Shown here one piece after another: positions 9,453 to 51,583 of a stretch of 64,000 nucleotides of DNA; position 1 is the first letter of the stretch, and the number at the start of each line of letters is the position of its first letter. Origin of the DNA: a virus (lineage: Duplodnaviria > Caudoviricetes); the IMG/VR virus record IMGVR_UViG_3300036982_000954, positions 3,907-67,906 of that record; one strand, 5' to 3'. Position numbers and translations under genes: made by a program. The notes beneath the pieces are model-generated. The model was not told the origin of the DNA. It saw only the letters and a list, made by a program, of their open reading frames with translations, and ran no database searches.

Positions 9453-9461
9453 CGTAGCCCC

Positions 9462-11237
9462 CTATTTCATCTGCACGACTTCCAAACCCTTGATAGTAAT
9501 GCCCTGCAACTTGAAGTCCTGTAGCACGGCATTCATATCCTTGGTGTGAAGCTCGGTTTTGATCTGCGCTTCCTTCATGTCCAACGCCTCGGACGCCCGA
9601 TCAGTGTTCTTCAGCGCATAGGCTTCGGCGGAACCATACTCAATCAAGGGCGCCATGTTGCTGACCGGAAGGTCCATACGCGCACTCTCAATTGCCCACA
9701 ATTGCGCCCGCTCCATCAACTGTGACTTGTACAAATCCTGAATGCGCTTCTTTTCCTTGGGGTCATTCGTCCCTTGCAACATTCGATTCCGTGCTTCCTG
9801 CAAACCGATGAGGGTCTTCTGCTTCTCCGTGGCGGTGTAGAGCTTCAGGTCGTAGGCATACTTATCCTTCAACCCCGCCATAGTCTCGTCGTACTCCTTC
9901 TGCGCCGCCGTCATCTTCCCGGTAGCTACGGACTTACCAAAAAGGCTCTGTTCCGAACCACCCGCATAGCGGGTATATGCTGCTTGATAGCCTCCTTGGG
10001 CGGCTACTAACTTCGCCAGGGCCGCTTCGCGTTCAAGCGCAATTGGACTCTTACGCCAATCTGCCGCGCCCTTCTTGGTCTTCTGTTCCTCTCGACTTTC
10101 CTTGAAAATGTCTTCCACAAAACCCTCGACTTGCTCCTGCATCATCAAACGATCTTGGACTGTCCTATCCTCCACTATGGTCTTGCGCATCTTGACCTTA
10201 TCTTGCTCCTCCTTGAGAAGTTGTGGCCAGGTCTTCCCCTTATCGCTTGCGACAGAACCAGCATTCGCCGCAACGGTCTGCCAAACCTGTTGGGGCTCCT
10301 TACTCCGGTTCTCCCCAAACAAACCGGCGAAGAAGCCTCCAACAGCCCCCCGCTCCGGGAGATTCTTCAAACGCTTCAGAATTTCCGCTCGGGTTTCCGG
10401 CCGGTAGTAACCCTGTTCAGTACCACCCTCAGTAGTCAAACCCTGGACCGTTTCCGCTCCCCAACGTCCCGCTTTAGCCGCCCAGCCTTCCGCCCCTGTA
10501 ATATTCTTATTCATCCACTTTGTTAGAGCAAGTATAACTGGGATAAGTTCTACCCCAAAGGCTTTGACTACATCGTCCGTGACGTTCTTCAACTGGGCCA
10601 TTGAACCTTCGAGGGTATTTGTCTGAGCCTCTGCCATAGGCTGGAACTTGACTCCCTTTTCTGTCATAGCCTGCTGAATATCCTCGACGGACTTCCCCTT
10701 TGTATTGATTCCCAAACGGCGAGCCATGCGCGTATCGCCGTAGCGCGCCCGCGACATCATAGTCATAACCGATTCGGGACTTCCATAACCTGCCGCGCTA
10801 AAGCCTATAGCCGCCTGGGTAGTCTTCTCAATCTGGTCGGGGCGGATTCCCCGCAGCATCCCCGTTGCCATCATACTCTGAACGGCTTCGGAACTGAATG
10901 TGGTAGTCCGTTGCATCTGCTGGGAAAAGGCCATCAATTTGGGCAGGGCTGCCGACGCCTTTACCCCCGACATTTCCAATGCCTGGGCCAGCCGGAACGT
11001 AGCCTGCTCGGCCTGCGACGCTTCCCGCCTAATAGCAACAAAGGCGCCTATCGCGCCCGCAGCACTACCGACGCCCAGCAGCGACCCCCAGCCTAAGCCG
11101 CGGAGAACGCTGCCCCCGACAAGGCCGGCATTTCCCTTGATCGAATTGGCGATGCCGGCCAGTTGGGACTTGATCTTGCTCCCGTCCAGCAGTACTGGAA
11201 GGATTATGGGAGGGAGAGTGGCGGTGTTCTCAGCCAT
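9462..11237 (-). CDS. tape measure protein
   Basis: 591 aa Ala/Gly-rich helical protein directly after the chaperone pair; TMP-like segment QAEAQTNTLEGSMAQLKN. Confidence 0.85.
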   Translation of the reverse strand: MAENTATLPPIILPVLLDGSKIKSQLAGIANSIKGNAGLVGGSVLRGLGWGSLLGVGSAAGAIGAFVAIRREASQAEQATFRLAQALEMSGVKASAALPKLMAFSQQMQRTTTFSSEAVQSMMATGMLRGIRPDQIEKTTQAAIGFSAAGYGSPESVMTMMSRARYGDTRMARRLGINTKGKSVEDIQQAMTEKGVKFQPMAEAQTNTLEGSMAQLKNVTDDVVKAFGVELIPVILALTKWMNKNITGAEGWAAKAGRWGAETVQGLTTEGGTEQGYYRPETRAEILKRLKNLPERGAVGGFFAGLFGENRSKEPQQVWQTVAANAGSVASDKGKTWPQLLKEEQDKVKMRKTIVEDRTVQDRLMMQEQVEGFVEDIFKESREEQKTKKGAADWRKSPIALEREAALAKLVAAQGGYQAAYTRYAGGSEQSLFGKSVATGKMTAAQKEYDETMAGLKDKYAYDLKLYTATEKQKTLIGLQEARNRMLQGTNDPKEKKRIQDLYKSQLMERAQLWAIESARMDLPVSNMAPLIEYGSAEAYALKNTDRASEALDMKEAQIKTELHTKDMNAVLQDFKLQGITIKGLEVVQMK

Positions 11238-13534: not shown

Positions 13535-13924
13535 TCACTGATCGCACAAGTCCCATTCGTCCTCGTCATGCAACGTCTCGAACACCACACCTTTCTTACC
13601 CAGCGTAACCAGCGTTCCGGTGGTGTCCATAACCAAGGCTTGCTGGCCATAAGTGGTGGCCTCCAACCGCAACCCTCCCTGCTTTAGGTAGGACTCACTC
13701 GCCCCACCCATACTTTGCGAAGCCTTTTCATTCTGCTTCAAACAAGAAAAGTGGGCGGCGAGGAGCTTCTCGATGACGGTCAACTGGTCCTCTTCCAGCG
13801 TTCCGATAGGGACCAGCTTCTTCTCCACAAGGATATGGGCCATGTCAATGAACGGGGTAGTGCTAAAAGTGAACGTCCCGGACATGATTGCCTTCACCTC
13901 GGCGTCGGTTACGCGATTGCCCAT
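13535..13924 (-). CDS. head-tail adaptor
   Basis: LLAAHF...ASESY...TTYGQQALVMDTTG pattern; synteny. Confidence 0.75.
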   Translation of the reverse strand: MGNRVTDAEVKAIMSGTFTFSTTPFIDMAHILVEKKLVPIGTLEEDQLTVIEKLLAAHFSCLKQNEKASQSMGGASESYLKQGGLRLEATTYGQQALVMDTTGTLVTLGKKGVVFETLHDEDEWDLCDQ

Positions 13925-13931
13925 ACAAACC

Positions 13932-14588
13932 TCACGCTAGCTGTTCTTCCATTGAGATTAGACTCATGCACCGCGGGGTCCACTCCAATCCCAAATCCTT
14001 GACCACTTGTTCAATCTCCGCCGTATTCCCTTGAAGGAAACGGCTGGGGCGGACCTCCAAAGCCTCCGGCAATTCGACAATTTGACCCAGGATGGACTCG
14101 TACCGCCGTGCCCACCTTTCCCATTCGTCCTCGGTCCGAAAGGCATCCATATAGGCCGTATGGACACAGGAAAAGACGATGTTCTCCACCGCCCGGCGCA
14201 CGACCACCCAGCGAGCGCCGGGGAACATCGCCCGCCAGAAAGGATAGGCTCCGGCTATTAGCGGGTGCTTGAGGAACCACGGGCCTTCCGTGTATCCGTC
14301 CGCCTCCGCCGCCGCCCAAATCTGCGTAGCCCACTCTTCAGGACTCAACTTAGCCCACTGCTCCTCACGGGCCATAGGCTTCTGTCCTCGCGGGTCCGCC
14401 CCCATAGCCCGAGCCAACTTGTGAACTACATTCCGAATCGGGATGTTCTCAAAGTTGCCCAGGCGCCGGGGGTTCTCCCGGTGGGGAGCGCCCATACCGC
14501 CGCCCCAGGCGCCGCTGTGGTAGAGCAGGCCCGCAGTCATCGTCGATCCCGAACGCGGGCAGCCGGCCACCAATATCGGGTTAGCCAT
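13932..14588 (-). CDS. PAPS-dependent sulfotransferase-like protein
   Basis: Start at MANPIL; ILVAGCPRSGSTMTAGLL (5'-PSB loop), FLKHP, VVVRR...IVFS (3'-PB). Confidence 0.75.
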   Translation of the reverse strand: MANPILVAGCPRSGSTMTAGLLYHSGAWGGGMGAPHRENPRRLGNFENIPIRNVVHKLARAMGADPRGQKPMAREEQWAKLSPEEWATQIWAAAEADGYTEGPWFLKHPLIAGAYPFWRAMFPGARWVVVRRAVENIVFSCVHTAYMDAFRTEDEWERWARRYESILGQIVELPEALEVRPSRFLQGNTAEIEQVVKDLGLEWTPRCMSLISMEEQLA

Positions 14589-16233
14589 GTTTAGCTCTCC
14601 ACTCCGCAACGTACTGATTCAATAGGGGCACAACGTCCCGCGCATAGCAGTTCAGCACCGCCTCGATCTTGGGCCAATTCTCCGCCGTATGCCCCGGACG
14701 CACCGAATGGCAATCCACCATGTCTCCGGGGATTTTCTCCGGCCACTTGCACCGATCAATACGGTCGTGAGGCGGGCAGCCTTTACGAGGCAGGATGGAC
14801 GCCCGGTCAGCAAAACCCTTCCACCGCTGTATGCGTTTGCCCAGCCACGTCTCGTCGTAACACCAGACCTTGATCGGCTCGGGCTCTTTCTGTGCCTCTT
14901 CCACCAAAACATTCGGGTCCACGCCGTCCAGCAATTCCCGCCAAGTAGCTACGGTGCCGCCGATATAGCAAATCGGATACTGGGCCGCCGGAGTGTAAGC
15001 GTTCCCATAGTAGAGGAACAACCGCTCCGGGTAGTAAGTGCATTCGTGGAAGAAGACTTTGCTCAGGGGCAGCATGTCCGCATCGGAAGTTAGCAAATAC
15101 ACCCCGTCTCCCCAGGGTTTGCAGTTATACGTCCGCCGATACGCAAACAACCGGGCGAACTGTGCCCTATTTGCGGTGTAATTAGGGGTCTGCGGGCGCT
15201 CGAAGTATACCTCCCCGCCTAGACGGCGGGTCCAGCCTAATTCAACGCGATTTGCCCACTCTTCCGGGCTCCCCACCAGGATATGCGTCGCAGTGAATCC
15301 CAAATACCGCCACAAAGCTGTGGTGATGGGCATAAAGAAGCTGTACATCGGGTTAAGGTCCGAGGCCAGCAACGCCCGGCGCTCCGGTTCCTGGCTCTCC
15401 CAGGAGAAATCCCCTGTAATATGACAATCCGTCTCGTCCTCCGCCGCTAGTACCGGGGCAATCTCTTGGGGGAAGCGCTCGGCGAAGAAGTTGTTCACCA
15501 AATGCACATCATACTGGGAGGTGCCGATGAACCGGATAAGATAGTTCACTGCCCAGCCCATTCCCGTGGACTCCCCACTGTAAGTCATCTCCGCCTCGGT
15601 AACTGTCTCTTTCTCCCCATGAGGCGGACAGCCCTTGAAACGGAAAGCCATCCCATCGGTCTGGGCAAAGAAGGACCAGACTACCCGATTCAGCACATGC
15701 TGGTCGCTGCCCTTAGCATCCTCCCAGCCCCCGGTCTGCTTGAACGAATCCCAAGTAGGATACTTGGTACGAAACCACTTGGTGCGGAAACCGCCCATCC
15801 CGCCCATGATACCAATATTGTGCGAACGGTTATCGCTGATCTGCATGATGCTGTGCGGGGACTTTACAAACTGCTCGCAGCACCATTTGTCTTTGGGAAT
15901 CAGGAGCGCATCCACGTCGCGGGGGAACACGAAGTCCGCATCGCTCTCCCAAATAGGACGCATCCTCCACAACATCCCCTCGCAGACGCTCGCGGGCGTC
16001 CCGCCGAACTTCAACTTCAACCAAGGCACCTTCGCCGCGAGGGCGAACAGGGCGGGAGCATACGGCCCGGTGAAGAGCGTCTCGTCGTAGTAGATATGAA
16101 GTTCCCAGATCGGGCGTTCGTAAAGCGCCGCCATTGCCCGCAGGTTACTGCACAAATAGTGCCGGAAAAACTGCGGGGTGATATTACTGGCGGGGGTCGT
16201 CCCGAACAGGGACATACTATAGACACACTTCAT
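14581..16233 (-). CDS. two-domain glycosyltransferase-like fusion
   Basis: N domain SMSLFG...MLWRMRP...RDVDA...MGGMGG; C domain AQFARLF...TSDADMLPL...YPICYIGG...DCHS; each has a DxD motif. Confidence 0.6.
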   Translation of the reverse strand: MKCVYSMSLFGTTPASNITPQFFRHYLCSNLRAMAALYERPIWELHIYYDETLFTGPYAPALFALAAKVPWLKLKFGGTPASVCEGMLWRMRPIWESDADFVFPRDVDALLIPKDKWCCEQFVKSPHSIMQISDNRSHNIGIMGGMGGFRTKWFRTKYPTWDSFKQTGGWEDAKGSDQHVLNRVVWSFFAQTDGMAFRFKGCPPHGEKETVTEAEMTYSGESTGMGWAVNYLIRFIGTSQYDVHLVNNFFAERFPQEIAPVLAAEDETDCHITGDFSWESQEPERRALLASDLNPMYSFFMPITTALWRYLGFTATHILVGSPEEWANRVELGWTRRLGGEVYFERPQTPNYTANRAQFARLFAYRRTYNCKPWGDGVYLLTSDADMLPLSKVFFHECTYYPERLFLYYGNAYTPAAQYPICYIGGTVATWRELLDGVDPNVLVEEAQKEPEPIKVWCYDETWLGKRIQRWKGFADRASILPRKGCPPHDRIDRCKWPEKIPGDMVDCHSVRPGHTAENWPKIEAVLNCYARDVVPLLNQYVAEWRAKHG

Positions 16234-17105
16234 GGAACTACTCCGAATAGATCAAGTCCAGCAAAGCGCTCCGACCCATACTTAGCCAGGAGCCGCCGAC
16301 ACTCCTTGGCAAACCAGCCCGGATCGGTCAGGTTAATTTCCCGATAGGGCAATTCGCCCCACCACGACAGGGGCACCGGGCTAGTCCCCAATCCCTGTTC
16401 ATCCAGCGCCTGCCCATACTTATAATTGAGTACCTCCACACTACTCTTCGGACGGTCGGGCCACCGCACCCGCTCCACCATCTTGTACCAAGCGTGTTTC
16501 GCGGTCAGCCGCGCCCAGTTAGCAAACTGCATATGAAACACCCCGCCCTCACTCTTGTGGAAGGGTGCCCGCCGGCCCGTGATTCCGTTCGGGAGCCGGG
16601 CATGGTGAACATAGCCGTCGACCGCGTTGCGCCAACTCAATTCCGGCCCGGTCTTGACCAGGAGCGAGACAATCCCCCGACTCCACACCGATTGATCGTT
16701 CCGGTACTGCTCCAGACACCGCCAAGTGGGAATCATCGGGACGTCCAGCGCCTCGCCCGGATGCAGGTGTTCATCAGCAATCCGCCGCACCTCCATTCTC
16801 AAGGGATGGGACAGGACTTCGTCGGCGTCAATCAAAGCCAGCACATCCGGCTTGAAAGCCTTGGCCAGTTCATACATATGCTGGCGCGCTTCCATCTCCT
16901 CCCAAAACTCGGACACCAAACCCATAGAAAAGAAGTGCAACCGCTTCCCATACCAAGGGGCATAACGAGTACACAGGTCTTGGGTGCCGTCGGTGGAGCC
17001 GGTATCCACTACCACCAACTCGTCTACCCAAGCCAGTGCTCCGGGTATGGAAAGGGGGAGAATCCACGCCTCGTTCTTGACCAGCATCATTCCGACTATG
17101 TTCAT
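16230..17105 (-). CDS. GT2-family glycosyltransferase
   Basis: MLVKNEA, VVVDTGSTDGT, LIDADE motifs. Confidence 0.85.
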   Translation of the reverse strand: MNIVGMMLVKNEAWILPLSIPGALAWVDELVVVDTGSTDGTQDLCTRYAPWYGKRLHFFSMGLVSEFWEEMEARQHMYELAKAFKPDVLALIDADEVLSHPLRMEVRRIADEHLHPGEALDVPMIPTWRCLEQYRNDQSVWSRGIVSLLVKTGPELSWRNAVDGYVHHARLPNGITGRRAPFHKSEGGVFHMQFANWARLTAKHAWYKMVERVRWPDRPKSSVEVLNYKYGQALDEQGLGTSPVPLSWWGELPYREINLTDPGWFAKECRRLLAKYGSERFAGLDLFGVVP

Positions 17106-17920
17106 TTCAACACCCCGCTAATGAACGGGCAGCTTAGCATAATGCTCTCCTGCCGTCGAGCAACAGCCTCCGGCACACCAGAGTGTGCTTTATACAAACC
17201 CACAATGTCCTCCAAAACCGACTGGTCCCCGGTATCGAAAGACAACCTCCCCTCCCGCCAATCCCGGCAGGTTACTGACCGATGCACACTCATTAGATAG
17301 TCTTCAAACTTCGCCCCGTCCCCTAGAATAGAATCGCTCAGGCGCATCCAAACGTTGGGGACTTGGTAGGCATCGGCGAACACCAACCCGTGCAGGGAAC
17401 TGGAGAACACCACATCACAAGCAACGATTTCGTTCAGGACTTCCTCTAGCGGGGCAAAGACGTTGATAATCTGAACATGCTCTATCCCACCCCACCACCA
17501 CCATGCCCGTTGCATATCAACATAGTGGGGCAGGACGCCCACCCGGAAAGGATGGGGGTCGGTGGGCCGCTCAACCTTGTGAAACCGCGATACCAGCAAA
17601 CCGGGGTCGCCCAAGGAAACCTCCCGCGCCCCCGGCACTTCACAATCCACTGCCCGACGACGGGACAGGGGACCGCGCACCAACCTCAAATCGCATTCGG
17701 GATTAACACAATCCATCTTGTTGGCCACCCCGGCTCCCCAAACAACCCAGCCTTTCTGCGCCCAGGTGAGAATGCTTCCCGCCCCTAGCAAATAAGAACC
17801 TTTTGAGACAGGCTCCGCATAGATTGGGTAGTGCCCGGTGATTTTCTTTATCAGCCAGGGAGTAAGGAAGTCGCCTACATTTGCCGACTGACACCACGTT
17901 GCTGTTACTGGTTCCGACAT
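17102..17920 (-). CDS. polysaccharide pyruvyl transferase family protein
   Basis: Start at MSEPV (GGAG RBS); NVGDFL, GAGSIL, VRGPLS, LGDPGLL, PHYVD, SSSLHGLVFADAY, KFEDY. Confidence 0.85.
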   Translation of the reverse strand: MSEPVTATWCQSANVGDFLTPWLIKKITGHYPIYAEPVSKGSYLLGAGSILTWAQKGWVVWGAGVANKMDCVNPECDLRLVRGPLSRRRAVDCEVPGAREVSLGDPGLLVSRFHKVERPTDPHPFRVGVLPHYVDMQRAWWWWGGIEHVQIINVFAPLEEVLNEIVACDVVFSSSLHGLVFADAYQVPNVWMRLSDSILGDGAKFEDYLMSVHRSVTCRDWREGRLSFDTGDQSVLEDIVGLYKAHSGVPEAVARRQESIMLSCPFISGVLK

Positions 17921-18672
17921 TTGGCACTCCACGTCTTGAGCGTCTCCGCCCAATAGGATAAGCAAATATGCCTCCAACCCCATTCTCCAGAATCCCACTT
18001 TTCAGCCCAGTTCATCAATAGGTCCAAAGTAGCCTCCTCCCACCGGGCAACCTTGATGAGCGGAAGGCCCAGCGCACAGAGCCACTGGGTAAACGGATTG
18101 TCCAGCACAATCGGATAGGCTCCCATATACAACGCTTGCCACGTCCGGTCACAGTCCCACCCGGAGCCGGGCGGACTGCACACAAAGCGATGCCGACGCA
18201 ACTGAAGCAGCCACTCATCCTCAGGCAAGCATTCGGGAGCGTAGGCCCAGTCCTGTTTCCCAAAATACTCGTAGGCTTCGCGCCGCGGATTGTGGTGTTT
18301 CCAGTTGCTCGCGGGAACGCCGTGGCACACCAAAACCCGGTTCATTCTCACCGGCTCCAGATGCACAAGCCGCCGCATACCCCGCGCCGTCCCCTCCGGA
18401 ACCCCAATCGGCATCAGACTGACCTTCGGGAAGCGGATAGCCGCATTGTTGGCGACGATATGAACCACGTTCTCCGGTATCTGCTGGTACAGCTTTTCAG
18501 TCAACTCGGCATCGCTGGGGTGCCGGCCCAGGAGCAGAACGCACGGTCCTGCGGCAGCCACGTCCTCCATCCGCCGGCCAAAGTCCAGGGTCTCCAACGG
18601 GACGTAGCGCACCGGGGGATGTGCCAGCTTAGGAATGTCGTTGGTCACAATCCATTCACAGACGGGAATCAT
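17905..18672 (-). CDS. exostosin-like (GT47-like) glycosyltransferase
   Basis: RFVCSPPGSGWDCDRTWQALYMGAYPIV signature. Confidence 0.75.
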   Translation of the reverse strand: MIPVCEWIVTNDIPKLAHPPVRYVPLETLDFGRRMEDVAAAGPCVLLLGRHPSDAELTEKLYQQIPENVVHIVANNAAIRFPKVSLMPIGVPEGTARGMRRLVHLEPVRMNRVLVCHGVPASNWKHHNPRREAYEYFGKQDWAYAPECLPEDEWLLQLRRHRFVCSPPGSGWDCDRTWQALYMGAYPIVLDNPFTQWLCALGLPLIKVARWEEATLDLLMNWAEKWDSGEWGWRHICLSYWAETLKTWSAKCRNQ

Positions 18673-19403
18673 GCTGGCTCTCCCGTATGCACGTCCCGAC
18701 GCCGGGCGAAGATGTCAATGTTTCCCGAACCTGTCGTAGGCTCGCGGGTCGGGTGAGTGTTCCGGCACACAATAATATCGTGCGTTGAAATGAGGGTGCT
18801 CGTGAACCACGCCGACCACTCCTCGGCCGACGTACAATCGAACCGATGCCCCCAATGCAACTCGCCGACAATAGCCCAGGCTTTCATCAAACAAGCCTCG
18901 GACGGCCAGTGTCCCCGGATTGCGTCCTCACCGCCCTCAGCATCCAATTTGATTAGGACGTTCTTCCCCCAGTCAATTGGAAGGTCACTCAGCCGCAACC
19001 CGACCACATCATAATCCACTTCGCTCTGTGATTTACCATAACGCTGAGTGCCGAGCGACCCACCAGTGGAAAGAAAGTTCGATGCACCGTGGCCCAAACC
19101 GCATTGCAAGGCGCGCACCCCCGGAAGGTCGCCCGCAAACTTCTCCCACAAGTCCATAGCCTTCCTATTCGGCTCGACCGCTAGAATCGGAACTTCAGGA
19201 AAAGCACAACGGGCAGCCAGAGTGAAAATCCCTACATTAGCCCCCAAATCCAGTATCTGCTCCGGCGGCGGGGTCCAGGTCTGGAGTTGGTCAAAACGAT
19301 AGCCGTCCCGCGTCACAATCTCGCCCACCAAACACTCGACCTCCTCGACCTTGAGATCGACATGGCTTAGGACAAACCGTTCAATTTCGGCGCTGGTCTT
19401 CAT
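18669..19403 (-). CDS. FkbM-family methyltransferase
   Basis: ILDLGANVG, VEPN, LIKLDAEGGE, GELH. Confidence 0.85.
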   Translation of the reverse strand: MKTSAEIERFVLSHVDLKVEEVECLVGEIVTRDGYRFDQLQTWTPPPEQILDLGANVGIFTLAARCAFPEVPILAVEPNRKAMDLWEKFAGDLPGVRALQCGLGHGASNFLSTGGSLGTQRYGKSQSEVDYDVVGLRLSDLPIDWGKNVLIKLDAEGGEDAIRGHWPSEACLMKAWAIVGELHWGHRFDCTSAEEWSAWFTSTLISTHDIIVCRNTHPTREPTTGSGNIDIFARRRDVHTGEPA

Positions 19404-20401
19404 CGGCAAATCTCCAACCAAGCGAACATTGCTTTTCCCAAAGTGTTCAGATAAGACCCCAGTTTGCTATCTGATTGCAACCAGCCAGCCAAATGGTCGT
19501 AGATACCAGCCACTGTATCGGACTTCTCCGAAGGAATACTATCCACGATCCTCCAAAAGGACTCGTTGTACAAAATGCCCGGAGCCTCAGCCACCAGATT
19601 ATTTAGCGGGTTGCTCGCTCGGGTATGCTCGACCACAGGCAATCCCGTACAGGCCCTGGCCCCCAAAGTATCCAATACCTTCTTGACCAGGATACCCGCC
19701 CAAATATCATCAAAGCGGTCAAAGGGCTGCCCCTCCCCCATCAAAGGAAAGTACATCGCCGGGATAAGTTCCCGCCGAAATGCTAGGTTCATACTACTCA
19801 TGGGGAAGTATACCTGCGGGGGCACAACGCAATAACTCTCCACTCCCCGACACACCAAATTACTTCCTTGAGAACGACCCCCGGTATACAACTGGGAAGG
19901 GGCATCGTAGTCCAGCGTCCCAGTCCACAAACCATGATTCAACAGCACCTGGACTGGCCGGGTCAAGGCTTGGTAAGGGGTGCCTCGCGCCGGTTTATCC
20001 GGGGACAGCACAGTACAAAACCAAGCGGGCTCCCCGTAGGTTGCAGCCAAATACTTTTGATGTTCGGAAAAGTGATTGGCCCTGACTCGGCAATCATCAT
20101 CCAAGGTAACGATTATGTCCGCCCCTTCCTTGAAGGCCCGCCAAAAGCCGTAAATCCGACAGGCGGCATTGCGCTTGGACAGAATCCAGAAGTTCTCACC
20201 CCAATCACGTCGGGTGTCCTCGCGGCATACCCCCACTATATTCAACTGTTCGTATCGGGGAAGCCGGAGAGTAAACTCCTCCGCATCCTGCATCACCCAT
20301 ACCTTGTTCGGTAGGGGCAGGCAGCCAGCCACACTTGCTAAGCAAGCCTCAAGCTCACTCTGCCGAATGGTAGGAATTACTAGGTGAATCTGGGGGCTCA
20401 T
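19400..20401 (-). CDS. RGP / UDP-arabinopyranose mutase-like protein (GT75)
   Basis: VIPTIR, AACRIYGF, TLDDDC, HGLW...DYDAPSQL, MNLAFRRELIPAMYFPLMGEGQP, RFDDIWAG, TGLP..EHTRASNP match plant RGP motifs. Confidence 0.85.
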   Translation of the reverse strand: MSPQIHLVIPTIRQSELEACLASVAGCLPLPNKVWVMQDAEEFTLRLPRYEQLNIVGVCREDTRRDWGENFWILSKRNAACRIYGFWRAFKEGADIIVTLDDDCRVRANHFSEHQKYLAATYGEPAWFCTVLSPDKPARGTPYQALTRPVQVLLNHGLWTGTLDYDAPSQLYTGGRSQGSNLVCRGVESYCVVPPQVYFPMSSMNLAFRRELIPAMYFPLMGEGQPFDRFDDIWAGILVKKVLDTLGARACTGLPVVEHTRASNPLNNLVAEAPGILYNESFWRIVDSIPSEKSDTVAGIYDHLAGWLQSDSKLGSYLNTLGKAMFAWLEICR

Positions 20402-21012
20402 AGCCGCTCTCTCCAAAGAAACAGACTATCCCAATAGTTGAACACGGACAAACCATGCCGCCGGGAAAGGCTGTGCTGAACCGAAATCATGCCGCACTCC
20501 TTCAAGTGCTGCACAACCTCGTCCACCTCGCCCTGCCACACTGAATAGTCAGGAGCCTCGTGCCCGTGAAACTCCACAGATATTTGAGTGGCTATCGGAA
20601 TCTTTGGCCAGTTCTTCAAAATCCCGATTTCGGCGCCTTCGATGTCCAGCTTCACTAATTCCCAATAACACACATCGCTCCGGGCCATCAAGTCCAGGAT
20701 GGTTATCGTATTCACAGGAATCGTGTCAGGACCGCTTTCCAGGGCTATCCTACGCGCTTGAGGGGGCCTCCCTACATCGAAGTACCCCCGGCCCGAAACG
20801 TGCGACAACGCCGCGCAAAATGCCCGGTCGACGTCCGGTATGTTATCAAACACATCGGGGTCGGCATCCACCGCCACCACACGCTGCTTGTGCTGCATAA
20901 AGTGCTCGGTGAATCCCCAGCCCCGACAGCCCCCATCCAATACCCAGCCAAGCGGGTGCAACTGGTTGGTGGCTACGGTGTGCTCGTGAATCGTCTCGAA
21001 CTCCAGACTCAT
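20398..21012 (-). CDS. FkbM-family methyltransferase
   Basis: VLDGGCRG, LVKLDIEGAE, QISVEFH. Confidence 0.8.
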   Translation of the reverse strand: MSLEFETIHEHTVATNQLHPLGWVLDGGCRGWGFTEHFMQHKQRVVAVDADPDVFDNIPDVDRAFCAALSHVSGRGYFDVGRPPQARRIALESGPDTIPVNTITILDLMARSDVCYWELVKLDIEGAEIGILKNWPKIPIATQISVEFHGHEAPDYSVWQGEVDEVVQHLKECGMISVQHSLSRRHGLSVFNYWDSLFLWRERL

Positions 21013-21024
21013 GGGTAGAGCCTC

Positions 21025-21777
21025 CTAGCAACCTTCGCTGGCAATGATAAGTTCCGGCGGGCTGTTTTCCCGCAGGTACGCCCCGAAACCGTCCCCCAAC
21101 TTCTTGGTCGGGAGTTTGCGTCTCCAGGCTATGTAGGACAGCGCCACCTCGTCGTGCCGGTGGCCATAGCACCGCGGGTCGTCGCTACACGGTCCCTCCG
21201 ACCGCCCTTTATAGCCCGCAGCATAAAGGGAACGGACTGCCTCCGGGTTGCTGGAGTTTATGCACGGGCCATAGATCAAACCCCGCGCATACAATTCCTT
21301 CAACTCAGCAAAAACCTCGTGCGCTAGAGTTTTGGCGAAATCGAAGAGGAAGACCGACCCAGCCAGCAACTCAATATCCTGCGCCCGGTCGCGGGATAGG
21401 TCAAGGATGGCCAGCCCATCATCCGAACAGAAGCGGGACAACGGCGCCCCACCACCCCACAACACAACGCCTTTCTGCTGGGCCTCGTCCACCAAAGGCT
21501 TCGGGTCGCGAATGAGCCAGGAAAAACTGTCCGCCCAAATGACAACCCGATTGGTCTTGCGCATCACCTGCTCCCGAGCCGCCTCCAAAGCATGAATCTT
21601 AAAGGCGTAGGGCTGCTCCAGATGCTGGGGACTGCCCATCGGATACTCCGCCGTCCAGTGCATGTAATCACACCCAAAACGATGGCAGGATTCCCGCTGC
21701 CGCTCCTGCCCTTTGAGATAGGCAGGACGAATCCAATCCGTAACTACGTTTATCACAGTCGGCGACTGGGGATTCAT
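21025..21777 (-). CDS. glycosyltransferase-like protein (GT-A)
   Basis: Start at MNPQ (ATGA overlap); PYAFKIHA, VIWADS, HRHDE motifs; island context. Confidence 0.55.
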   Translation of the reverse strand: MNPQSPTVINVVTDWIRPAYLKGQERQRESCHRFGCDYMHWTAEYPMGSPQHLEQPYAFKIHALEAAREQVMRKTNRVVIWADSFSWLIRDPKPLVDEAQQKGVVLWGGGAPLSRFCSDDGLAILDLSRDRAQDIELLAGSVFLFDFAKTLAHEVFAELKELYARGLIYGPCINSSNPEAVRSLYAAGYKGRSEGPCSDDPRCYGHRHDEVALSYIAWRRKLPTKKLGDGFGAYLRENSPPELIIASEGC

Positions 21778-22487
21778 CCAATGGAGGCTGTACATAGCTC
21801 CCTCTCCGATAACTCGTAGCCAGGGAATCCCTGGGATTGCCGCTCGTGAAACAACTCGCGATCCTGCGCCCAGCCCCGCTGGGCCTTTACCAAATACTCG
21901 GGGCGCGACACCTTGCGCCTACTCCAATGATCGTGATAATGGGTCAGGTCCGACCGTTGCCAAAGCAGGCGCTGCTTATCCGCAACGTTCCTCAATTCCT
22001 CATCGGCAAAGAATTGGTGATACTCGGGCCAGAACACCCCGCGGCCACCGTTAGCCCGCAGAATGTAATCGCGGCCCATCCAGGGTGAACCACAGATACG
22101 CTCGCTCGCGGCTTTCCCGTCCTTATCCAGCATCCACCGATCTCCGGTAGGCTGCATTATCCCGCAGGAGCCGCCGAAATGATACAGGAAGTCCATTTCA
22201 ATCTTCTCGGCTTGGGGATCATGGTCGCCCGGCCACATATCGTCGCCTCCCGTAACGATGGCGGTGCTTTGGGGATCGTGGTTCAGCAGAATGCGGCACA
22301 TCCCATTAACGACGTTAGGCCAGCCAGTGTACACACCCTCCAGCACCAAGTCGATCTGTTTCCGATAAGGCACCGGGGCATGGAGATCGATGAAAGCGCA
22401 CACCTTGTACCCTTTGGCTTTCCACAATGGAAATACCCGCTGGGCATTCTCGGGGTTGGCCGTCGCGATAGCATACCAAACGCTCAT
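21774..22487 (-). CDS. GT2-like glycosyltransferase
   Basis: GWPNVVN, IVTGGDDMWP, ICGSPWMG, YHQFFADEEL, HYHDHW. Confidence 0.65.
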   Translation of the reverse strand: MSVWYAIATANPENAQRVFPLWKAKGYKVCAFIDLHAPVPYRKQIDLVLEGVYTGWPNVVNGMCRILLNHDPQSTAIVTGGDDMWPGDHDPQAEKIEMDFLYHFGGSCGIMQPTGDRWMLDKDGKAASERICGSPWMGRDYILRANGGRGVFWPEYHQFFADEELRNVADKQRLLWQRSDLTHYHDHWSRRKVSRPEYLVKAQRGWAQDRELFHERQSQGFPGYELSERELCTASIG

Positions 22488-23137
22488 GCGGCTACCTCTT
22501 TTGCCAAAGTGCTGCGGCGGAAGAAAGGCAACGCGGTATCTTCAGAAGCATTGACTACCTCGAAGGCGGCGGGCAGGTCGCCCCGCTTCTTGAAGAACTC
22601 GATATTTTCGTGCAGGGTTTCCATATGGTCGAGCCAGACCTTGATCTTCTCCGCATTCGGGGCACGTCCCCGCGGCGGATGCCAATTTGGCTCTCCTGTA
22701 ATGGGCGCCAGCTTGAAGTCGAAACCGACCAGGACCACTTTGCGCGCCCCGAACAGAATGGCCAGATTGATAGCGCTGGTGCCGGTGTTCATATTCCACC
22801 CGACACGGCCGTCGATGAAACAGCCCCGGATTTCCCGGCGCACAACCAAAATGCCCTCACAATCCGTATGCGCACAACGCTCCTGGCACGTTACCTTGAG
22901 GCCCGGAAACTGGTCGAGATCTTTCTCAAAGAGTTCGTACCAACTCCAGTCGCCAAAGTAGCACACGTCGATCCAGTCCCCCAACAGGAAGGCATCGTTA
23001 CAACCGATGACCCTGATCGAGGGGTGGCGAGGGTGTTCGAGCAGCTTCAAGTTAGTACCCTCTAGGGACGGGCCTCCGCCAATGATAACGGCGGTCGATC
23101 CGTCCCATATCTTTGGCGGAGTCCAGTACCCCTTCAT
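22484..23137 (-). CDS. Maf/DUF115- or GT29-like transferase
   Basis: AVIIGGGPSL, IGCND, NTGTSAINLA...ARKVVLVGFD. Confidence 0.7.
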   Translation of the reverse strand: MKGYWTPPKIWDGSTAVIIGGGPSLEGTNLKLLEHPRHPSIRVIGCNDAFLLGDWIDVCYFGDWSWYELFEKDLDQFPGLKVTCQERCAHTDCEGILVVRREIRGCFIDGRVGWNMNTGTSAINLAILFGARKVVLVGFDFKLAPITGEPNWHPPRGRAPNAEKIKVWLDHMETLHENIEFFKKRGDLPAAFEVVNASEDTALPFFRRSTLAKEVAA

Positions 23138-23139
23138 TC

Positions 23140-23445
23140 CTAGCGGCCTTCCACCATCGCTTGCGCTTCCTGCTCGGTCAGCGCCTGGGTGTTGATGCGC
23201 TTGCCCGTGGCCGGGTTCAGCACATCATACCCATCACCAGTCGGACGCACAACGGCAGTCGGGCGTGTCCCTGGGGGAACCGTGCGCCGACGGGCGCGGG
23301 TCTGGTCCAGCGCCGCCGGCTCCAGCACCCGATGAAACTTGCCAGTGAAAATCCGGTCCAGGGGACGGTCACTGTTCACCAGCGCTCCCTGCTCGTACTT
23401 CTTGTTCCCTTCGCGATGATTCCCGCACATCAAACGATACTGCAT
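23140..23445 (-). CDS. small head-associated protein
   Basis: 101 aa right after the capsid gene; AAGGAG RBS; GYDVLNPATGKRINTQALT motif. Confidence 0.65.
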   Translation of the reverse strand: MQYRLMCGNHREGNKKYEQGALVNSDRPLDRIFTGKFHRVLEPAALDQTRARRRTVPPGTRPTAVVRPTGDGYDVLNPATGKRINTQALTEQEAQAMVEGR

Positions 23446-23526: not shown

Positions 23527-24546
23527 TCAGGCCATGTGGATGATACCACAGTAGTTGTCCTGATCGCTCCGCATCTGCGGAACCAGGATGGTCATCACCT
23601 TGAAGTGACTGACCATGCCGCCTTCCGTCCGCCACTCGATGGTCTGGACGGGGAGGCCCTGCACCATCCGCACCGTCTCCACGTCCATCTGGACGAGGAG
23701 GACGTTGTGCGCGGTGAGGAAGTCGGCCACGCGGATGCCCGCGATGTTGTCCAACTTCATCAAGCGCTCGCGCACCGTGATGGTGTTCGGGGACGTCGTG
23801 CTGTAGTCGTCGTCCAGCTTCGTCTCGTAGCCGGACGGGACGTACAGCATGTACGGACCATAGCGGCGGTTGTCGATGGCCGCCTGCTTCATGGTCTTCA
23901 CCATGTTCTTGATGTCCTCGCCCGTGCAGGCGGTGGCATCCCACTGCTCCGTCAGCGTGACCGACTCACGGTACGGGTAGTCCATGTACCCGTAGATCGT
24001 GCCGCCACCGTAGGCGAACGTGCTCGCCCCGCAGAACAGCATGTCTTCCGCCTTCTCGGCCACCTTCCTTGCCGCCAACTGCGCCTGCAAGGTATCCAGA
24101 CCGACGTGCCCGCGATTGCGCGACGCGCTGAGGACGCGGATGTTGATCTGGAAGTCCTTGTGGATGATCGGCAAGGGCAGGTACTTGATGCCGAACTTCA
24201 CACGGTCGTTGTTACCCCGCGTAACAGCGTCCATGCTGAGGTTGGCACCGTTCATGTCGCTCACGTCCTCATGCTGCAGGACCGTGGTGCCCATCCCATT
24301 CGGGATGTTCAGCGACAGGCCGCGGCCCATCAGGTCGGTGACACCGACCAGCCGCTTCTGGAAGGCTGCCACGACGGCCTCGTCGTAGTACTTCCACTCG
24401 TCGTGCCGCAACAGGTCGTTCGTGCGCAGGGCGCGGACGTCCATGTTGGTCTGGAGGAGCCGGGTGGCCACGTCGCCGTGACTCTGGCCGTTGTGGATGA
24501 CATCCACGGTAGCCGGGCCGCGAATCCAATTCTTCATTGCGTTCAT
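23527..24546 (-). CDS. major capsid protein (HK97 fold, encapsulin/Linocin-M18-like type)
   Basis: RALRTNDLLRHDEW, LPLPIIHKDF, ARKVAEKAEDM, YGPYMLYVP; extreme GC3 bias; follows scaffold and decoration genes. Confidence 0.9.
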   Translation of the reverse strand: MNAMKNWIRGPATVDVIHNGQSHGDVATRLLQTNMDVRALRTNDLLRHDEWKYYDEAVVAAFQKRLVGVTDLMGRGLSLNIPNGMGTTVLQHEDVSDMNGANLSMDAVTRGNNDRVKFGIKYLPLPIIHKDFQINIRVLSASRNRGHVGLDTLQAQLAARKVAEKAEDMLFCGASTFAYGGGTIYGYMDYPYRESVTLTEQWDATACTGEDIKNMVKTMKQAAIDNRRYGPYMLYVPSGYETKLDDDYSTTSPNTITVRERLMKLDNIAGIRVADFLTAHNVLLVQMDVETVRMVQGLPVQTIEWRTEGGMVSHFKVMTILVPQMRSDQDNYCGIIHMA

Positions 24547-24593: not shown

Positions 24594-25040
24594 TTAGGCA
24601 ATCTCCACTTCAATGAAGGAATCCGGGTCGGCCTTGCTGGAGTCGGACATGTTGACCGCCTCCAACGAGATGCCTACCAGCGCGCCTTCCTTGACCGTGC
24701 CCGAACCCGTCCGCAGCCGGCCATCGCCGTTACTGTAGACAGGCGCATGTTTCGTCACGTTGTAGCCCTGAGCCACGCGGAGCAACATCACGTCGCCCTT
24801 CTGGGGGGCGCGGAAGAAGACTCGGTCCCCCGCCGCGTAGGCTTCCGTGATTTCGTTGCCCTGGTTCTCGTCCTCAAGCGCCACCAGCAGAGGCTGGCAG
24901 TAGTCGAGGCTGTTCCCGTGCCGACGCACAGTGGCCGCCGCCGGAACCCGTTGGAGGATTTCGCCGGGGTAGATAGCCGCCGCCGCAAGCGCCTCCTTGA
25001 TGGGGCCGTCGCTCTGCAGGGTGATCGTGCGATTTGCCAT
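24594..25040 (-). CDS. head decoration / cement protein
   Basis: 148 aa between scaffold and capsid; EALAAAAIYPG, YAAGDRV motifs. Confidence 0.75.
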   Translation of the reverse strand: MANRTITLQSDGPIKEALAAAAIYPGEILQRVPAAATVRRHGNSLDYCQPLLVALEDENQGNEITEAYAAGDRVFFRAPQKGDVMLLRVAQGYNVTKHAPVYSNGDGRLRTGSGTVKEGALVGISLEAVNMSDSSKADPDSFIEVEIA

Positions 25041-25083: not shown

Positions 25084-26331
25084 TTAGGCTCTCGCGTCCA
25101 GCGTCTTCAGCGCGCCCTGCCAGTCGACCTTCGGCGGCTCCGGCACCTTCTCCGCTTCCTCGTCCTCGTTGGCCTCGAAGCCATACCGCAGGGCCATCGC
25201 CGGACTCACGGTCCGCAGCAGGTCGCGCAGTTCGTTCGTCTCCATCGCCATCAGCGACTTCTCGCTGATCTTGACCCTCTTGGTGGCGGTGATCTCGTCC
25301 ACCAACTCGCGCTTCGCCGCTTCCTCGCCCGCATTCTTCACGAGCATCGGAACCAGCTTCGTCACCTTCTCCTCGACCGCCGCATTGATGCGCTGCTGCA
25401 TCAGGGCCTCGAGTTCCTCGTCGGTGACTTCACGGTCGCCCGCCTGCTCGGCGTTCGCGGCGAGCCGCTTCTTGACCTCAGCCTCAACGTTGGCCTTGAA
25501 CTGCTTCTCGGCCTCCGCCTTGGCATCCGCCTCGGCCTTGTCGTCCGCCTGCTTCTTGGTCGTCGCCTCAGCCTTCGCAGCGGCGGCTTCCTCGCGGGCG
25601 TTCACGACCATCTCAAAGGCGTCGGCGTCCAACGCCTCCAGAATGGTCACTTCCTCGTTCGTGGCGAGATTGCTCTTGACGAGCTTCGCCACTGCCTTCT
25701 TGCGGTCCATCGGGACCTCCTCTTCGGTTTGGGTTGCTTTGCTGTTGGTACGCGGGAATCCTGCCCCCGCCTCCCACGAACACGCGCCCTTTTCGTCGGG
25801 CAGCAATGCCAGGTGGTCGGGTCGGTAGTTCTTACTGATTGCGGAATAGGGCTTGCCCTGCCACTCGCCGTTCTGCACGGAGGCTTCGAGGAACAGTCCC
25901 GTGCTGACCTCGATGGGCTTGCCTGCTTCCACTCGACCGGCCAGTTGCGGATTCAGTTTCCGCAGCTTGGACATCTCCAGCCACAACTCGCCCTTGAGGC
26001 GGGGTGCCTCATAGGTCGTATTGTAGACCACGCCGATGTCCACGCGCTTGAGATCGGGTTGGTTCGCGCTCACGCGCTTCCCAGCCTTCTCCGGGTGTTT
26101 GACCGTAACCGGCCGACCATTCCAAGCCTCGGCAAACTTGCTCAGTTCGTCCCCTGTGTAGAGAATGTCGTTCCAGACACCCTCCCGAATCATTACCACA
26201 GGGCCGACCAAGTAGTGTTTACCATCCAACGATTCCGCCCGCATCTTGCCACTTGGCGAGGCAAGGTGGGTGCAGAACCGCTCCTGCAGAGCCGTCTGAT
26301 TTGTGACTAGGTTTTTGTTCGTCCTCCTCAT
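25084..26331 (-). CDS. DUF2213 prohead protease/scaffold protein
   Basis: Start at MRRTNK; VMIREGV, WNGRPVTVKHP, EVSTG, RPDHLALLP..KGACS, then a charged helical scaffold tail. Confidence 0.85.
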   Translation of the reverse strand: MRRTNKNLVTNQTALQERFCTHLASPSGKMRAESLDGKHYLVGPVVMIREGVWNDILYTGDELSKFAEAWNGRPVTVKHPEKAGKRVSANQPDLKRVDIGVVYNTTYEAPRLKGELWLEMSKLRKLNPQLAGRVEAGKPIEVSTGLFLEASVQNGEWQGKPYSAISKNYRPDHLALLPDEKGACSWEAGAGFPRTNSKATQTEEEVPMDRKKAVAKLVKSNLATNEEVTILEALDADAFEMVVNAREEAAAAKAEATTKKQADDKAEADAKAEAEKQFKANVEAEVKKRLAANAEQAGDREVTDEELEALMQQRINAAVEEKVTKLVPMLVKNAGEEAAKRELVDEITATKRVKISEKSLMAMETNELRDLLRTVSPAMALRYGFEANEDEEAEKVPEPPKVDWQGALKTLDARA

Positions 26332-26513
26332 TGTTTCACCTGGGGGTTGAACTCCGCTGCTTGCTTGTACACGATCCCGCGATCTCCAGGGTAGGGCTTG
26401 TCGTGGACCACCTTGCCCTTGCGAATGTCGCGGGGGATACCGTCCGGGAACGCGGCGCAGCAACCGTCCCGCAGGTATCGCTCACACTGCATACAGAAAA
26501 TTGACCAACTCAC
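26328..26513 (-). CDS. small Cys-rich protein (CxxC...CxAFPDGIP), MuF-locus associated
   Basis: CMQC...CCAAFPDGIP...HDKPYPGDRGI motif. Confidence 0.7.
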   Translation of the reverse strand: MSWSIFCMQCERYLRDGCCAAFPDGIPRDIRKGKVVHDKPYPGDRGIVYKQAAEFNPQVKQ

Positions 26514-26983: not shown

Positions 26984-27684
26984 TAGATGCCCCTCGTATC
27001 ATTGAGAAAGACTTTGTCATTGAGGAAGACTTTGCCCGATAGCGGATACCACCCACTCAAGGCCACAAGGCGCGACCGAATGGACTGATCCTGGTCCAGC
27101 ACAAACCCTTCGTCCTTGAACTTGGCAATCCACCAATCATCGGACTTGTTGGTTACATGATGCCAGCCCGTGCCGCCGTGCCCTTCGGTTCCGTGCGCCA
27201 CTACCACAACCTTGCCCAGCCGCAGGGCCGCGAAGACATTGCCCAGGTACTGCTCCTCAACATGCTCCAGCATATCGCAGCACCAGACCAAATCCACCGC
27301 GAAAGACAAGGGCCAGCACCCGGTTGTGAAGTCGTGCTGGTGACAGCAGATTCGCTTGGTCCGCGCTACGCTCACGTTGCGGTCCAGGCCATCCACCCCG
27401 ATACTGAACACCCCCCGCAGGGCAAACCATTCGGCGGCGCCCCCTTCCCCGCAGCCAACGTCGAGGAAGGTTTTGGGCTGGTAGTACCCCAACAGCCAGG
27501 GCCACAGCGTATGGGGGTAGGACGTGCCAGGATCGCCGCCCTCCAGATTGCCCCCCAAATGGGGTTGCTCCGGGTCGGTCACAAAGGCACAGCCACCCGC
27601 TGCGGATACAATCGTACAATCGTCCCGCCGATTGATCTCCGCCGGCTTGATTGCATCCAGCATCGCTTGGTACTTCGCGTTCAC
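26983..27684 (-). CDS. class I SAM-dependent methyltransferase
   Basis: FLDVGCGEG, GVDG, DLVWCCDMLEHV. Confidence 0.85.
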   Translation of the reverse strand: MNAKYQAMLDAIKPAEINRRDDCTIVSAAGGCAFVTDPEQPHLGGNLEGGDPGTSYPHTLWPWLLGYYQPKTFLDVGCGEGGAAEWFALRGVFSIGVDGLDRNVSVARTKRICCHQHDFTTGCWPLSFAVDLVWCCDMLEHVEEQYLGNVFAALRLGKVVVVAHGTEGHGGTGWHHVTNKSDDWWIAKFKDEGFVLDQDQSIRSRLVALSGWYPLSGKVFLNDKVFLNDTRGI

Positions 27685-32278: not shown

Positions 32279-32737
32279 TTACTCTATCGGATTCCCCAAT
32301 GCCTTATCAAAAACCTTGATGGCCGCCTCCTTCGCCGCATACAACTCCCCTTCCTTGTCCCAAGATTTTCTAGCTGCCTCCATAGCCTTATCCGTAACCC
32401 GATCCACCGTCTCACGACTCCTGACTTGCTGCTCCTGAGATAATTTGCGGAAGCGGTCAAACAATTCCTGTCTAGCCCCCCGGCAAGCCTGGAAGGCAGA
32501 TTCCTTCCTGTCCTGCTCCTCCCTGGTTTCCCCCAAAGAGGCTCCCGCTTCAAGCAGCTTCTCAACTTTCCGGTACTCAGTGCGTCCTTTCAATAACGCG
32601 GAAAGACTGATCTTTTCACCACCTTCGTCGCCGCTGCCGCCTACTTCCCCAGGCCTACCAGCATGGCCAAAGTTCCCTGAGCCAGAACCACCAAGGGTCT
32701 TCAAAACCCTGGTCACTTGCTGTTTGTTGGTTTTCAT
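32279..32737 (-). CDS. tagged helical hypothetical protein between terL and portal
   Basis: Start at MKTNK (TAATG overlap with terL); 152 aa. Confidence 0.75.
   Translation of the reverse strand: MKTNKQQVTRVLKTLGGSGSGNFGHAGRPGEVGGSGDEGGEKISLSALLKGRTEYRKVEKLLEAGASLGETREEQDRKESAFQACRGARQELFDRFRKLSQEQQVRSRETVDRVTDKAMEAARKSWDKEGELYAAKEAAIKVFDKALGNPIE
32633..32692 (-). repeat. copy 3 of encoded tag GGSGSGNFGHAGRPGEVGGS
   Basis: Residues 16-35 of the 152-aa protein. Confidence 0.95.
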
Positions 32738-51563: not shown

Positions 51564-51583
51564 TGTCATTCTCCCAAAGGGAA

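Follow-up and report, generated by a model that had tools for sequence, protein, structure and literature searches.

An uncultured 68-kb tailed phage carries, between its major capsid protein gene and its head-tail adaptor gene, an island of enzyme genes that probably serves the stepwise glycosylation of one or more virion surface proteins in the cytoplasm (we put the probability of this reading at about 0.6). Glycosylation would be primed by an enzyme resembling the flagellin-modifying Maf enzymes of bacteria and would end with sulfation, giving the particle an anionic sugar coat. The target most likely belongs to the head, as the capsid protein, the decoration protein or the small protein encoded just behind the capsid gene. 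The island occupies positions 13932-23137 of the stretch of DNA that we analysed (64,000 nucleotides, hereafter the window). The window covers bases 3907-67906 of an IMG/VR virus record of 67,906 bp, which has direct terminal repeats and is rated complete. The enzyme families, the order of their genes, the solubility of the products and the conservation of the slot in relatives are shown by the analysis, and it is from the enzyme families that we predict a branched, methylated, pyruvylated and sulfated glycan.

The island interval is filled by 11 open reading frames (ORFs), all on the minus strand and co-oriented with the flanking genes. An earlier sequence-only reading of this DNA had counted ten genes, a number corrected by the ORF listing and at odds with that reading's own list of eleven enzymes. 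Neighbouring ORFs overlap by 4-29 nt or are separated by gaps of 12 nt at most, and one longer overlap, apparently of 94 nt at 17905/17998, would be reduced to about 16 nt by a start of the pyruvyltransferase at the Met at 17920; the genes are translationally coupled. Promoter- and terminator-like sites in the island showed no excess over shuffled sequence. The slot is bounded upstream by the gene of the major capsid protein (MCP; 339 amino acids, 23527..24546, minus strand, phrog_771 at 8e-23) and downstream by that of a head-tail adaptor-like protein (129 amino acids, 13535..13924, minus strand, phrog_37884 at 1e-8), and these PHROG matches confirmed the previous statement that the island interrupts the head module. 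Between the MCP gene and the island lies a gene for a small conserved protein of 101 amino acids (23140..23445, minus strand) that matched neither Pfam nor PHROG. This position is occupied in most relatives, with or without an island, and in island-less relatives the adaptor homologue comes directly after it. None of the 11 island proteins contains a transmembrane-like hydrophobic segment, and no lipid-carrier-initiating phosphotransferase, flippase, polymerase or export gene was seen in the island, in line with the earlier remark that genes for export, polymerization and flipping are missing. The enzyme inventory of the sequence-only reading held for ten of the 11 ORFs, which were supported as transferases or tailoring enzymes of the types named; a 550-amino-acid protein listed there as a two-domain glycosyltransferase (GT) matched no family and is plausible as such. 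The plus-strand AT skew is positive across the island (+0.03 to +0.12 over window positions 14000-22000) and negative in the flanking structural genes. Since regions of replication genes show similar values, this may reflect the composition of enzymes as opposed to structural proteins, not a foreign origin.

The first gene to be transcribed (22484..23137, minus strand) encodes a Maf/CstII-like transferase of 217 amino acids with a sialyltransferase-like fold, a variant of GT-A. It matched phrog_4603 at 1e-26, a group annotated as 'alpha-2,3-sialyltransferase', and MptE-like/DUF115 (PF01973) at 9e-6 with 26.0 bits, under the gathering cut-off of 34.6; many members of the Maf-like family carry a precomputed PF01973 label. 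The AlphaFold2 (AF2) model reached a predicted local distance difference test (pLDDT) value of 94.7. Its best PDB matches in Foldseek were CstII (GT42), a Pasteurella sialyltransferase, Maf 5mu5 and human ST8SiaIII (GT29), with a probability of 1.0 and template modelling (TM) scores of 0.5-0.6 to CstII, Maf 5mu5 and ST8SiaIII. The protein is 33-43% identical to the first island genes of relatives. We propose that it is the priming enzyme of the island, because the sole conserved transferase has the fold of enzymes that place sugars directly on bacterial flagellin.

The inner genes, likewise on the minus strand, follow in the order given here. The first (237 amino acids, 21774..22487) was assigned to GT-A, GT2-like glycosyltransferases from Atlas features and structure: its feature score to phage clusters was 0.97-0.99, and its TM score to clusters named GT2 was 0.76-0.81 (PF00535 being present on 12% and 73% of their members). 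It gave no Pfam or PDB sequence match, and tblastn detected no homologue in 50,697 phage records. The second, a GT-A fold glycosyltransferase of the LH3-GlcT/GT6-like type (256 amino acids, 21025..21795), has 641 representative homologues and an AF2 model with a pLDDT of 95.8, for which Foldseek found the glucosyltransferase domain of LH3 (collagen; 6wfv, E 3e-6) as the best match, followed by Mimivirus R699 and BoGT6a. Searches of PDB sequences with the 217-, 237-, 256- and 550-amino-acid proteins returned nothing significant. Two FkbM-family methyltransferases, of 204 amino acids (20398..21012; PF05050 at 4e-7, TIGR01444 at 6e-8, phrog_8156) and 250 amino acids (18669..19421; TIGR01444 at 7e-9, phrog_8156 at 3e-5, PF05050 at 0.011), flank an RGP/GT75-like protein of 338 amino acids (19400..20416). 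The latter matched PF03214 over its full length at 9e-34 (117.6 bits against a cut-off of 23.8; residues 9-336 aligned with profile positions 5-336 of 342), and its PDB relatives are a 'transglycosylase' (7yua, 7e-17) and a UDP-arabinopyranose mutase (8cid, 1e-13), which suggests either a mutase of this type or a transglycosylase. Homologues of it were found in five of the 50,697 phage records.

The next gene encodes a GT47/GT114-like glycosyltransferase of the exostosin type (255 amino acids, 17905..18672), whose closest solved relative is A075L of the chlorovirus PBCV-1 (8avq/8q8i; phmmer E 3e-7, over residues 115-247 of the phage enzyme). A075L was deposited as an exostosin/GT47 domain protein, was later named GT114 and builds the N-glycan of the PBCV-1 capsid (PMC11571054). 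The polysaccharide pyruvyltransferase encoded behind it (17102..17998, with a probable start at 17920 and then about 272 amino acids) matched PF04230 (PS_pyruv_trans) at 3e-10, with 40.9 bits against a cut-off of 25.3. After the internal Met its N-terminus shows an NVGD motif, which we take to be typical of PF04230 pyruvyltransferases, and tblastn found homologues in 18 phage records, mostly of huge phages. A GT2 glycosyltransferase (291 amino acids, 16230..17105; phrog_13126) matched PF00535 at 4e-5, borderline and just over the cut-off, and its tblastn matches were GT2 genes of cyanomyoviruses. The last inner gene (14581..16233) encodes the 550-amino-acid protein, in which Atlas structures delimit two halves (7-312 and 281-550), each like phage proteins of about 280 residues. 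The nearest named Atlas clusters of these halves are GT8/Nucleotid_trans, and a D-x-D motif is invariant in the stand-alone homologues of one half; by structural likeness the protein is probably a double GT-A-like transferase.

The island ends with a sulfotransferase of the type that uses 3'-phosphoadenosine-5'-phosphosulfate (PAPS) (13932..14609, minus strand, probable start 14588), which matched PF13469 (Sulfotransfer_3) at 8e-17. Over 56 relatives the residues of the RSG loop, R19-S20-G21, were conserved at 100%, and in the R-x7-S motif R139 was present in 100% and S147 in 96%.

To place the island among related phages we scanned IMG/VR in three ways. A 10-sequence Maf-like alignment gave at least 512 confirmed stretches, of which the best 80 were examined; a single Maf-like protein as the query, unlike this alignment, gave no matches. 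A scan with a capsid alignment, which avoids the bias of selection by the Maf-like gene, gave at least 527 confirmed stretches with the best 80 kept, and 54 of these capsid-selected loci were resolved on both sides and form our closed sample. The MCP alone as the query retrieved six relatives, the two closest being those with loci L004 and L003. In the best 80 Maf-selected loci a recurrent order was observed: protease/scaffold, decoration protein, MCP, small gene, Maf-like gene, variable genes, sulfotransferase, adaptor and connector. The capsid-selected loci provide the survey of relatives that the sequence-only reading had suggested, and most of them have an island in the slot: the Maf-like gene is the first in the slot in 45 of the 54 closed loci, and the sulfotransferase is also present in 37 of those. 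Between the two lies a variable cassette of 0 to about 12 shuffled genes. Three loci (L118, L123 and L153) hold the Maf-like enzyme and the sulfotransferase alone, so that the Maf-like enzyme is the sole candidate primer there. The gap between capsid and adaptor genes was shorter than 1.5 kb in 8/54 loci, six with only the small post-capsid gene or genes, one with only a sulfotransferase and one with only a Maf-like gene. Its median in the closed loci was 3.6 kb and its maximum 9,166 bp; the gap of the window, about 9.6 kb, is the largest closed one, and a handful of loci that run off the contig have gaps at least as long. In the cultured Brevundimonas phage MaInes the interval between capsid and neck holds small genes only.

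The ends and the middle of the island behave differently. In L004 a 7.6-kb island fills the same slot (L004:3430-11050), and its ends are homologous to those of the window, with 39% identity for the Maf-like first gene and 33% for the sulfotransferase as last gene. Its middle encodes two radical S-adenosylmethionine (SAM)/SPASM enzymes, one of them fused to a methyltransferase, as well as methyltransferases, two other transferases, a cupin and an adenosine 5'-phosphosulfate (APS) kinase. L003 shows the start of an island, with the small post-capsid gene and the Maf-like gene, and then the contig ends. Among 138 non-redundant cassette proteins of relatives, a Pfam tally gave 18 SAM methyltransferases, 11 GT2 enzymes and 9-12 NAD-dependent epimerase/dehydratases, including GDP-mannose dehydratase and PseB/CapD-type enzymes; hexapeptide acyltransferases, GT9, GT11 and radical SAM enzymes were also prominent. 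Two of the nine inner genes of the window have homologues in about 175 related loci, namely those of the GT47-like enzyme (five loci) and the 550-amino-acid protein (one locus), and no homologue was found there for the GT75 protein, the pyruvyltransferase, both FkbM methyltransferases, the GT2 enzyme and both small GT-A enzymes. In architecture the island of the window is typical of its class; in size and content it is unusual. It is no exception in kind, the class being widespread, with conserved first and last genes that the sequence-only reading had no means of seeing. A literature search for an island running from a Maf-like gene to a sulfotransferase in phage head operons found no description. 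Two further features of the relatives were recorded. The short APS-kinase gene of L004 stands directly before the sulfotransferase gene, so some relatives bring part of the PAPS supply that the present phage lacks. A fusion of about 800 amino acids, which joins a SAM-methyltransferase to a GT9-like part and has a large remainder of no assigned family, is encoded at L024:1188-3623; at least 13 loci contain homologues, as a rule immediately before the sulfotransferase gene.

We then compared the history of the Maf-like gene with that of the capsid gene. In 28 non-redundant loci the pairwise divergence of the Maf-like protein correlated with that of the capsid protein (Spearman 0.58), a value reached in 0/500 permutations; for comparison, the correlation with the capsid was 0.45 for the adaptor and 0.26 for the sulfotransferase (12/500 permutations). 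More telling than this correlation is the presence of the Maf-like gene behind the capsid gene in other capsid lineages. The Maf-like family was found in 72 isolated-phage records. Pseudomonas phage D3 belongs to a different capsid lineage, and its major head gene is followed immediately by an intact Maf-like ORF of 198 amino acids that precedes the adaptor gene Ad1. The cultured 39-kb caudovirus 'Tetraselmis viridis virus' S20 has a block of about ten genes (L010:5769-12038) between the gene after the protease and the head-closure gene, containing two Maf-like paralogues, two genes annotated as glycosyltransferases and one methyltransferase gene, and could serve as a laboratory model for islands of this kind. 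Behind the tail genes of Caulobacter phage CcrSC lies a small cassette that begins with a Maf-like gene and contains a methyltransferase gene. The Maf-like gene of P1 is pmgO, which is labelled 'putative morphogenetic function' and belongs to a late operon with pmgQ (annotated as a glycosyltransferase); a literature search for the function of pmgO found nothing relevant. In the D3 record the single Maf-like ORF (L009:5813-6409) is split into two annotated genes, orf6.5 and orf7, and the neck genes of D3 are also interrupted, by a methyltransferase gene and one for a 275-amino-acid protein (orf12 and orf13).

We infer the target, the sugar donors, the order of the steps and the benefit to the phage as follows. 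The Maf/CstII-like enzyme would begin the glycan by linking a sugar directly to a virion protein that is folded or in assembly. Five to seven transferases (the two GT-A enzymes, the GT47/GT114-like enzyme, the GT2 enzyme and probably both halves of the 550-amino-acid protein) would then extend and branch the chain, while the GT75/RGP enzyme may supply a furanose donor or add a further sugar. The two FkbM methyltransferases would O-methylate sugars, the pyruvyltransferase would add a pyruvate ketal, and the sulfotransferase would finally sulfate the product with PAPS from the host. The resulting coat would be anionic and strain-specific, with methyl ethers, a pyruvate ketal, sulfate and possibly a furanose, and the middle genes would be swapped freely between relatives, as in bacterial O-antigen loci. 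Direct glycosylation in the cytoplasm is the most economical scheme because the enzymes are soluble, late-expressed and unaccompanied by a lipid carrier or export, and because the smallest islands consist of the Maf-like gene and the sulfotransferase. The virion glycan coat proposed by the sequence-only reading gains from the comparative context as regards its site of action, the details of the glycan being predictions from enzyme families. Action on the virion is supported by the conservation of the slot in most relatives, by the divergence of the Maf-like protein that tracks that of the capsid, by the Maf-like gene following the capsid gene in other lineages, by A075L being a chlorovirus capsid-glycan transferase, and by the abundance of sugar-nucleotide and glycan enzymes in the cassettes of relatives. 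Extended to the whole uncultured and globally distributed lineage (more than 500 IMG/VR contigs), the proposal would be that a Maf-like primer co-inherited with the capsid starts O-glycosylation of the capsid, that the glycan is sulfated and that cassettes are swapped to give anionic 'serotypes'; this we hold tentatively, as somewhat short of an even chance.

Several observations weigh against virion glycosylation as proposed here. The capsid proteins of island-bearing and island-less relatives are not distinguished by a C-terminal extension, a Ser/Thr-rich tail or an insert, and none of this phage's virion proteins has a run of Ser/Thr at its end. Linkage alone could cause the correlated divergence of the Maf-like and capsid genes, and the slot could be a permissive site for late-expressed cargo. 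In some relatives (L169, L176 and L183) the Maf-like gene lies one gene further, after the adaptor, and therefore the insertion point is not fixed to one junction; the same placement between adaptor and connector was recorded in L171, L178 and L116, with the sulfotransferase there too in L171 and L116. As for the supply of substrates, no sugar-nucleotide pathway genes, including those of nonulosonate synthesis, were seen in this phage genome, NeuB (nonulosonate synthesis) was found in 0/40 related phage records, and the phage genome contains no APS kinase for the supply of PAPS. Homologues of the sulfotransferase were absent from isolated phage records. The 550-amino-acid protein gave no Pfam, NCBIfam, PHROG or PDB match, its two halves have no detectable similarity to each other, and a profile of its stand-alone homologues did not match the family of the 256-amino-acid GT-A enzyme, the PDB or Pfam.

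Three rival readings were weighed. The island might remodel a glycan or glycoprotein of the host cell late in infection (lipopolysaccharide (LPS)/O-antigen, capsule, S-layer, flagellin or pilin), perhaps to keep progeny off debris or to block superinfection, with the slot as a convenient site for cargo. Pyruvyltransferases, FkbM and GT2 enzymes and sulfotransferases are typical of surface-polysaccharide loci, the bacterial Maf enzymes that the first gene matches in fold act on flagellin, a host protein, the turnover of the cassettes resembles that of cargo genes, and we found no target motif on the virion proteins. We nevertheless consider this unlikely. The lipid-carrier-initiating transferase, flippase, polymerase or membrane-anchored enzyme that such a role suggests is missing, and hundreds of relatives have retained both the slot and its first gene, which diverges with the capsid gene and stays in head or tail modules of unrelated phages. 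Lysogeny genes were not seen in the phage either: a search of the genome for a tyrosine integrase and a serine recombinase (integrase/resolvase) detected none, which in a complete genome with terminal repeats makes lysogenic conversion unlikely. Modification of a virion protein outside the head (tail tube, tail fibre or neck), of a non-structural phage protein or of a small molecule, leaving the capsid without a coat, would fit the cassette behind the tail genes of CcrSC and those between adaptor and connector in some relatives. It would also fit mycobacteriophages, whose tail tube carries modifications in addition to those of the capsid (PMC11600133). In 45/54 closed relatives, in D3 and in S20, however, the capsid gene and the small post-capsid gene are immediately followed by the Maf-like gene, and a target away from the head seems to us quite improbable.

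Glycosylation of the phage DNA itself, as a hypermodification of bases before packaging that protects from host nucleases, has a precedent, in that phage glycosyltransferases building multi-sugar chains on 5-hydroxymethylcytosine are reported in a preprint (bioRxiv 10.1101/2023.12.21.572611). The island genes are expressed when DNA is packaged, and two DNA methylases and a radical SAM enzyme are encoded elsewhere in the genome. Yet the island belongs to the head operon and has no replication or modification genes as neighbours, and no hydroxymethylase was found among the replication genes scanned; a search of the genome for Tet/JBP gave no match, but neither did the controls of that search. 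We know of no precedent for pyruvylation, sulfation or FkbM O-methylation on DNA glycans, and regard this explanation as very improbable.

For virion glycosylation, the preferred reading, the closest documented system is that of mycobacteriophages, with which the island shares its logic and position and not its enzymes. In cluster O, three tandem transferases lie behind an O-methyltransferase, and the capsid and the tail tube are glycosylated, as two reports describe (PMC11600133; PMC12619734). The cluster O (Corndog-type), Che8 and other systems resemble the island in having soluble GTs and an O-methyltransferase in the structural operon near the capsid gene without export machinery. Those systems run to 1-4 transferases with a single methyltransferase, and their targets are virion proteins; the island has 11 genes, predicted pyruvylation and sulfation, and Maf-like and sulfotransferase ends. 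The mycobacteriophage glycans sit on the C-termini of capsid and tail-tube subunits, whereas the capsid protein of the present phage has no visible C-terminal glycosylation tail. When four island enzymes (Maf-like, GT2, 237-amino-acid GT-A and pyruvyltransferase) were compared by tblastn with the 50,697 phage records, no mycobacteriophage was among the matches listed. Closest in chemistry is the chlorovirus PBCV-1 (A064R, A075L, A111/114R), in which virus-encoded cytoplasmic transferases and methyltransferases build an unusual, methylated glycan on the major capsid protein and of which the A075L enzyme is a sequence homologue of the 255-amino-acid enzyme (PMC11571054). PBCV-1 differs in being a eukaryotic giant virus with another capsid fold, an N-linked glycan and genes that are scattered instead of gathered in one slot. 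We know of no sulfotransferase, pyruvyltransferase or Maf-like enzyme in it.

For the priming enzyme, the closest systems are the flagellin glycosylation islands of bacteria, where a Maf-type enzyme with a sialyltransferase fold acts in the cytoplasm on a self-assembling structural protein and is accompanied by variable sugar-tailoring genes. The phage enzyme is a minimal domain of 217 amino acids, in contrast to about 630 for Maf with its extra domains; its PF01973 score is below the cut-off, genes for nonulosonate synthesis were not seen beside it, and its target is not flagellin. The Maf-like genes of P1 (pmgO), D3 (orf6.5/orf7), PAJU2, S20 and CcrSC belong to the same family as that of the window (tblastn E 1e-7 to 6e-16) and occupy late or structural modules, those of D3 and S20 coming directly after a head gene, but they are only 26-33% identical to the window's and none of these phages has the sulfotransferase. 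In evolutionary behaviour the nearest likeness is to O-antigen and capsule loci, with their hypervariable cassette between conserved flanks, and the GT2, FkbM and pyruvyltransferase families are shared with the island; sugar-nucleotide dehydratases occur in the cassettes of relatives. The island differs from these loci in lacking lipid-linked initiation, Wzx/Wzy, ABC export and membrane proteins, and in lying inside a virion operon.

To our knowledge, glycosylation of the phage particle has been documented only for mycobacteriophages, with few transferases. The island would represent phage-encoded virion glycosylation in a Maf-primed, sulfotransferase-capped and hypervariable form, a reading that is partly supported. 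If it is true, glycosylation of phage particles would be common in environmental phages and chemically much richer, with methylation, pyruvate ketals and sulfate. A charged and variable coat would alter how virions stick to particles, mucus, cell debris and non-host cells and how grazers or immune systems recognize them, and it would bear on the behaviour of the phages in purification and therapy. Should the proposal for the whole lineage hold, the present phage would be an extreme case that adds methyl, pyruvate, sulfate and arabinofuranose-type groups, its particle would be the first sulfated or pyruvylated one of a prokaryotic virus, and a selective agent that reads phage surfaces would be implied. 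With its fixed ends and variable middle the island offers a concrete handle: the Maf-like enzyme, as a candidate primer directed at protein, is open to testing in the cultured phages D3, PAJU2, P1, S20 and CcrSC, and the island enzymes may be a source of soluble glycan-tailoring activities.

The remainder of the genome is that of a tailed phage with genes mostly on the minus strand of the window. Upstream of the island are the genes of the large terminase (TerL, 32737-34068), portal (30687-32210), MuF-type minor head protein (27681-29975), protease/scaffold (25084-26463) and head decoration protein (24594-25040); downstream of the adaptor-like gene follow connector and neck genes, a tail assembly chaperone and a tail fibre. 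The MCP is 40-58% identical to those of hundreds of IMG/VR relatives and 36% identical to the annotated MCP of MaInes. The nearest cultured phages are the Brevundimonas siphoviruses MaInes and StAshley, at a capsid identity of just 36%, and megablast of 12 kb of the window against isolated phages gave no matches. A search for hosts in GTDB genomes gave 17 matches, mostly to contigs of metagenome-assembled genomes (MAGs) from many unrelated phyla and one to a scaffold of a Paenibacillus isolate; the MAG matches are probably mis-binned phage contigs, and no host was assigned. No tRNA genes were found in the window.

Replication genes elsewhere in the window encode a family-A polymerase in two pieces, a clamp loader, a RecA-like protein, a primase-like protein and two DNA methylases. 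The two methylase genes (N6/N4 type) are adjacent at 38214-39679 and adjoin genes for a PD-(D/E)XK nuclease, a 5'-3' exonuclease and the RecA-like protein. The family-A polymerase is split over two genes at 44794-47359, the upstream one encoding a domain of the uracil-DNA-glycosylase superfamily fused to a 3'-5' exonuclease. Amid the replication genes, a 483-amino-acid radical SAM protein (50166-51617) gave a weak Pfam match, below the cut-off. After the tail chaperone genes, at the place expected for a tape measure, proteins of 591 and 323 amino acids are encoded (8481-11237) that have no PHROG match; a tape measure of 591 amino acids would be short for a siphovirus of 68 kb.

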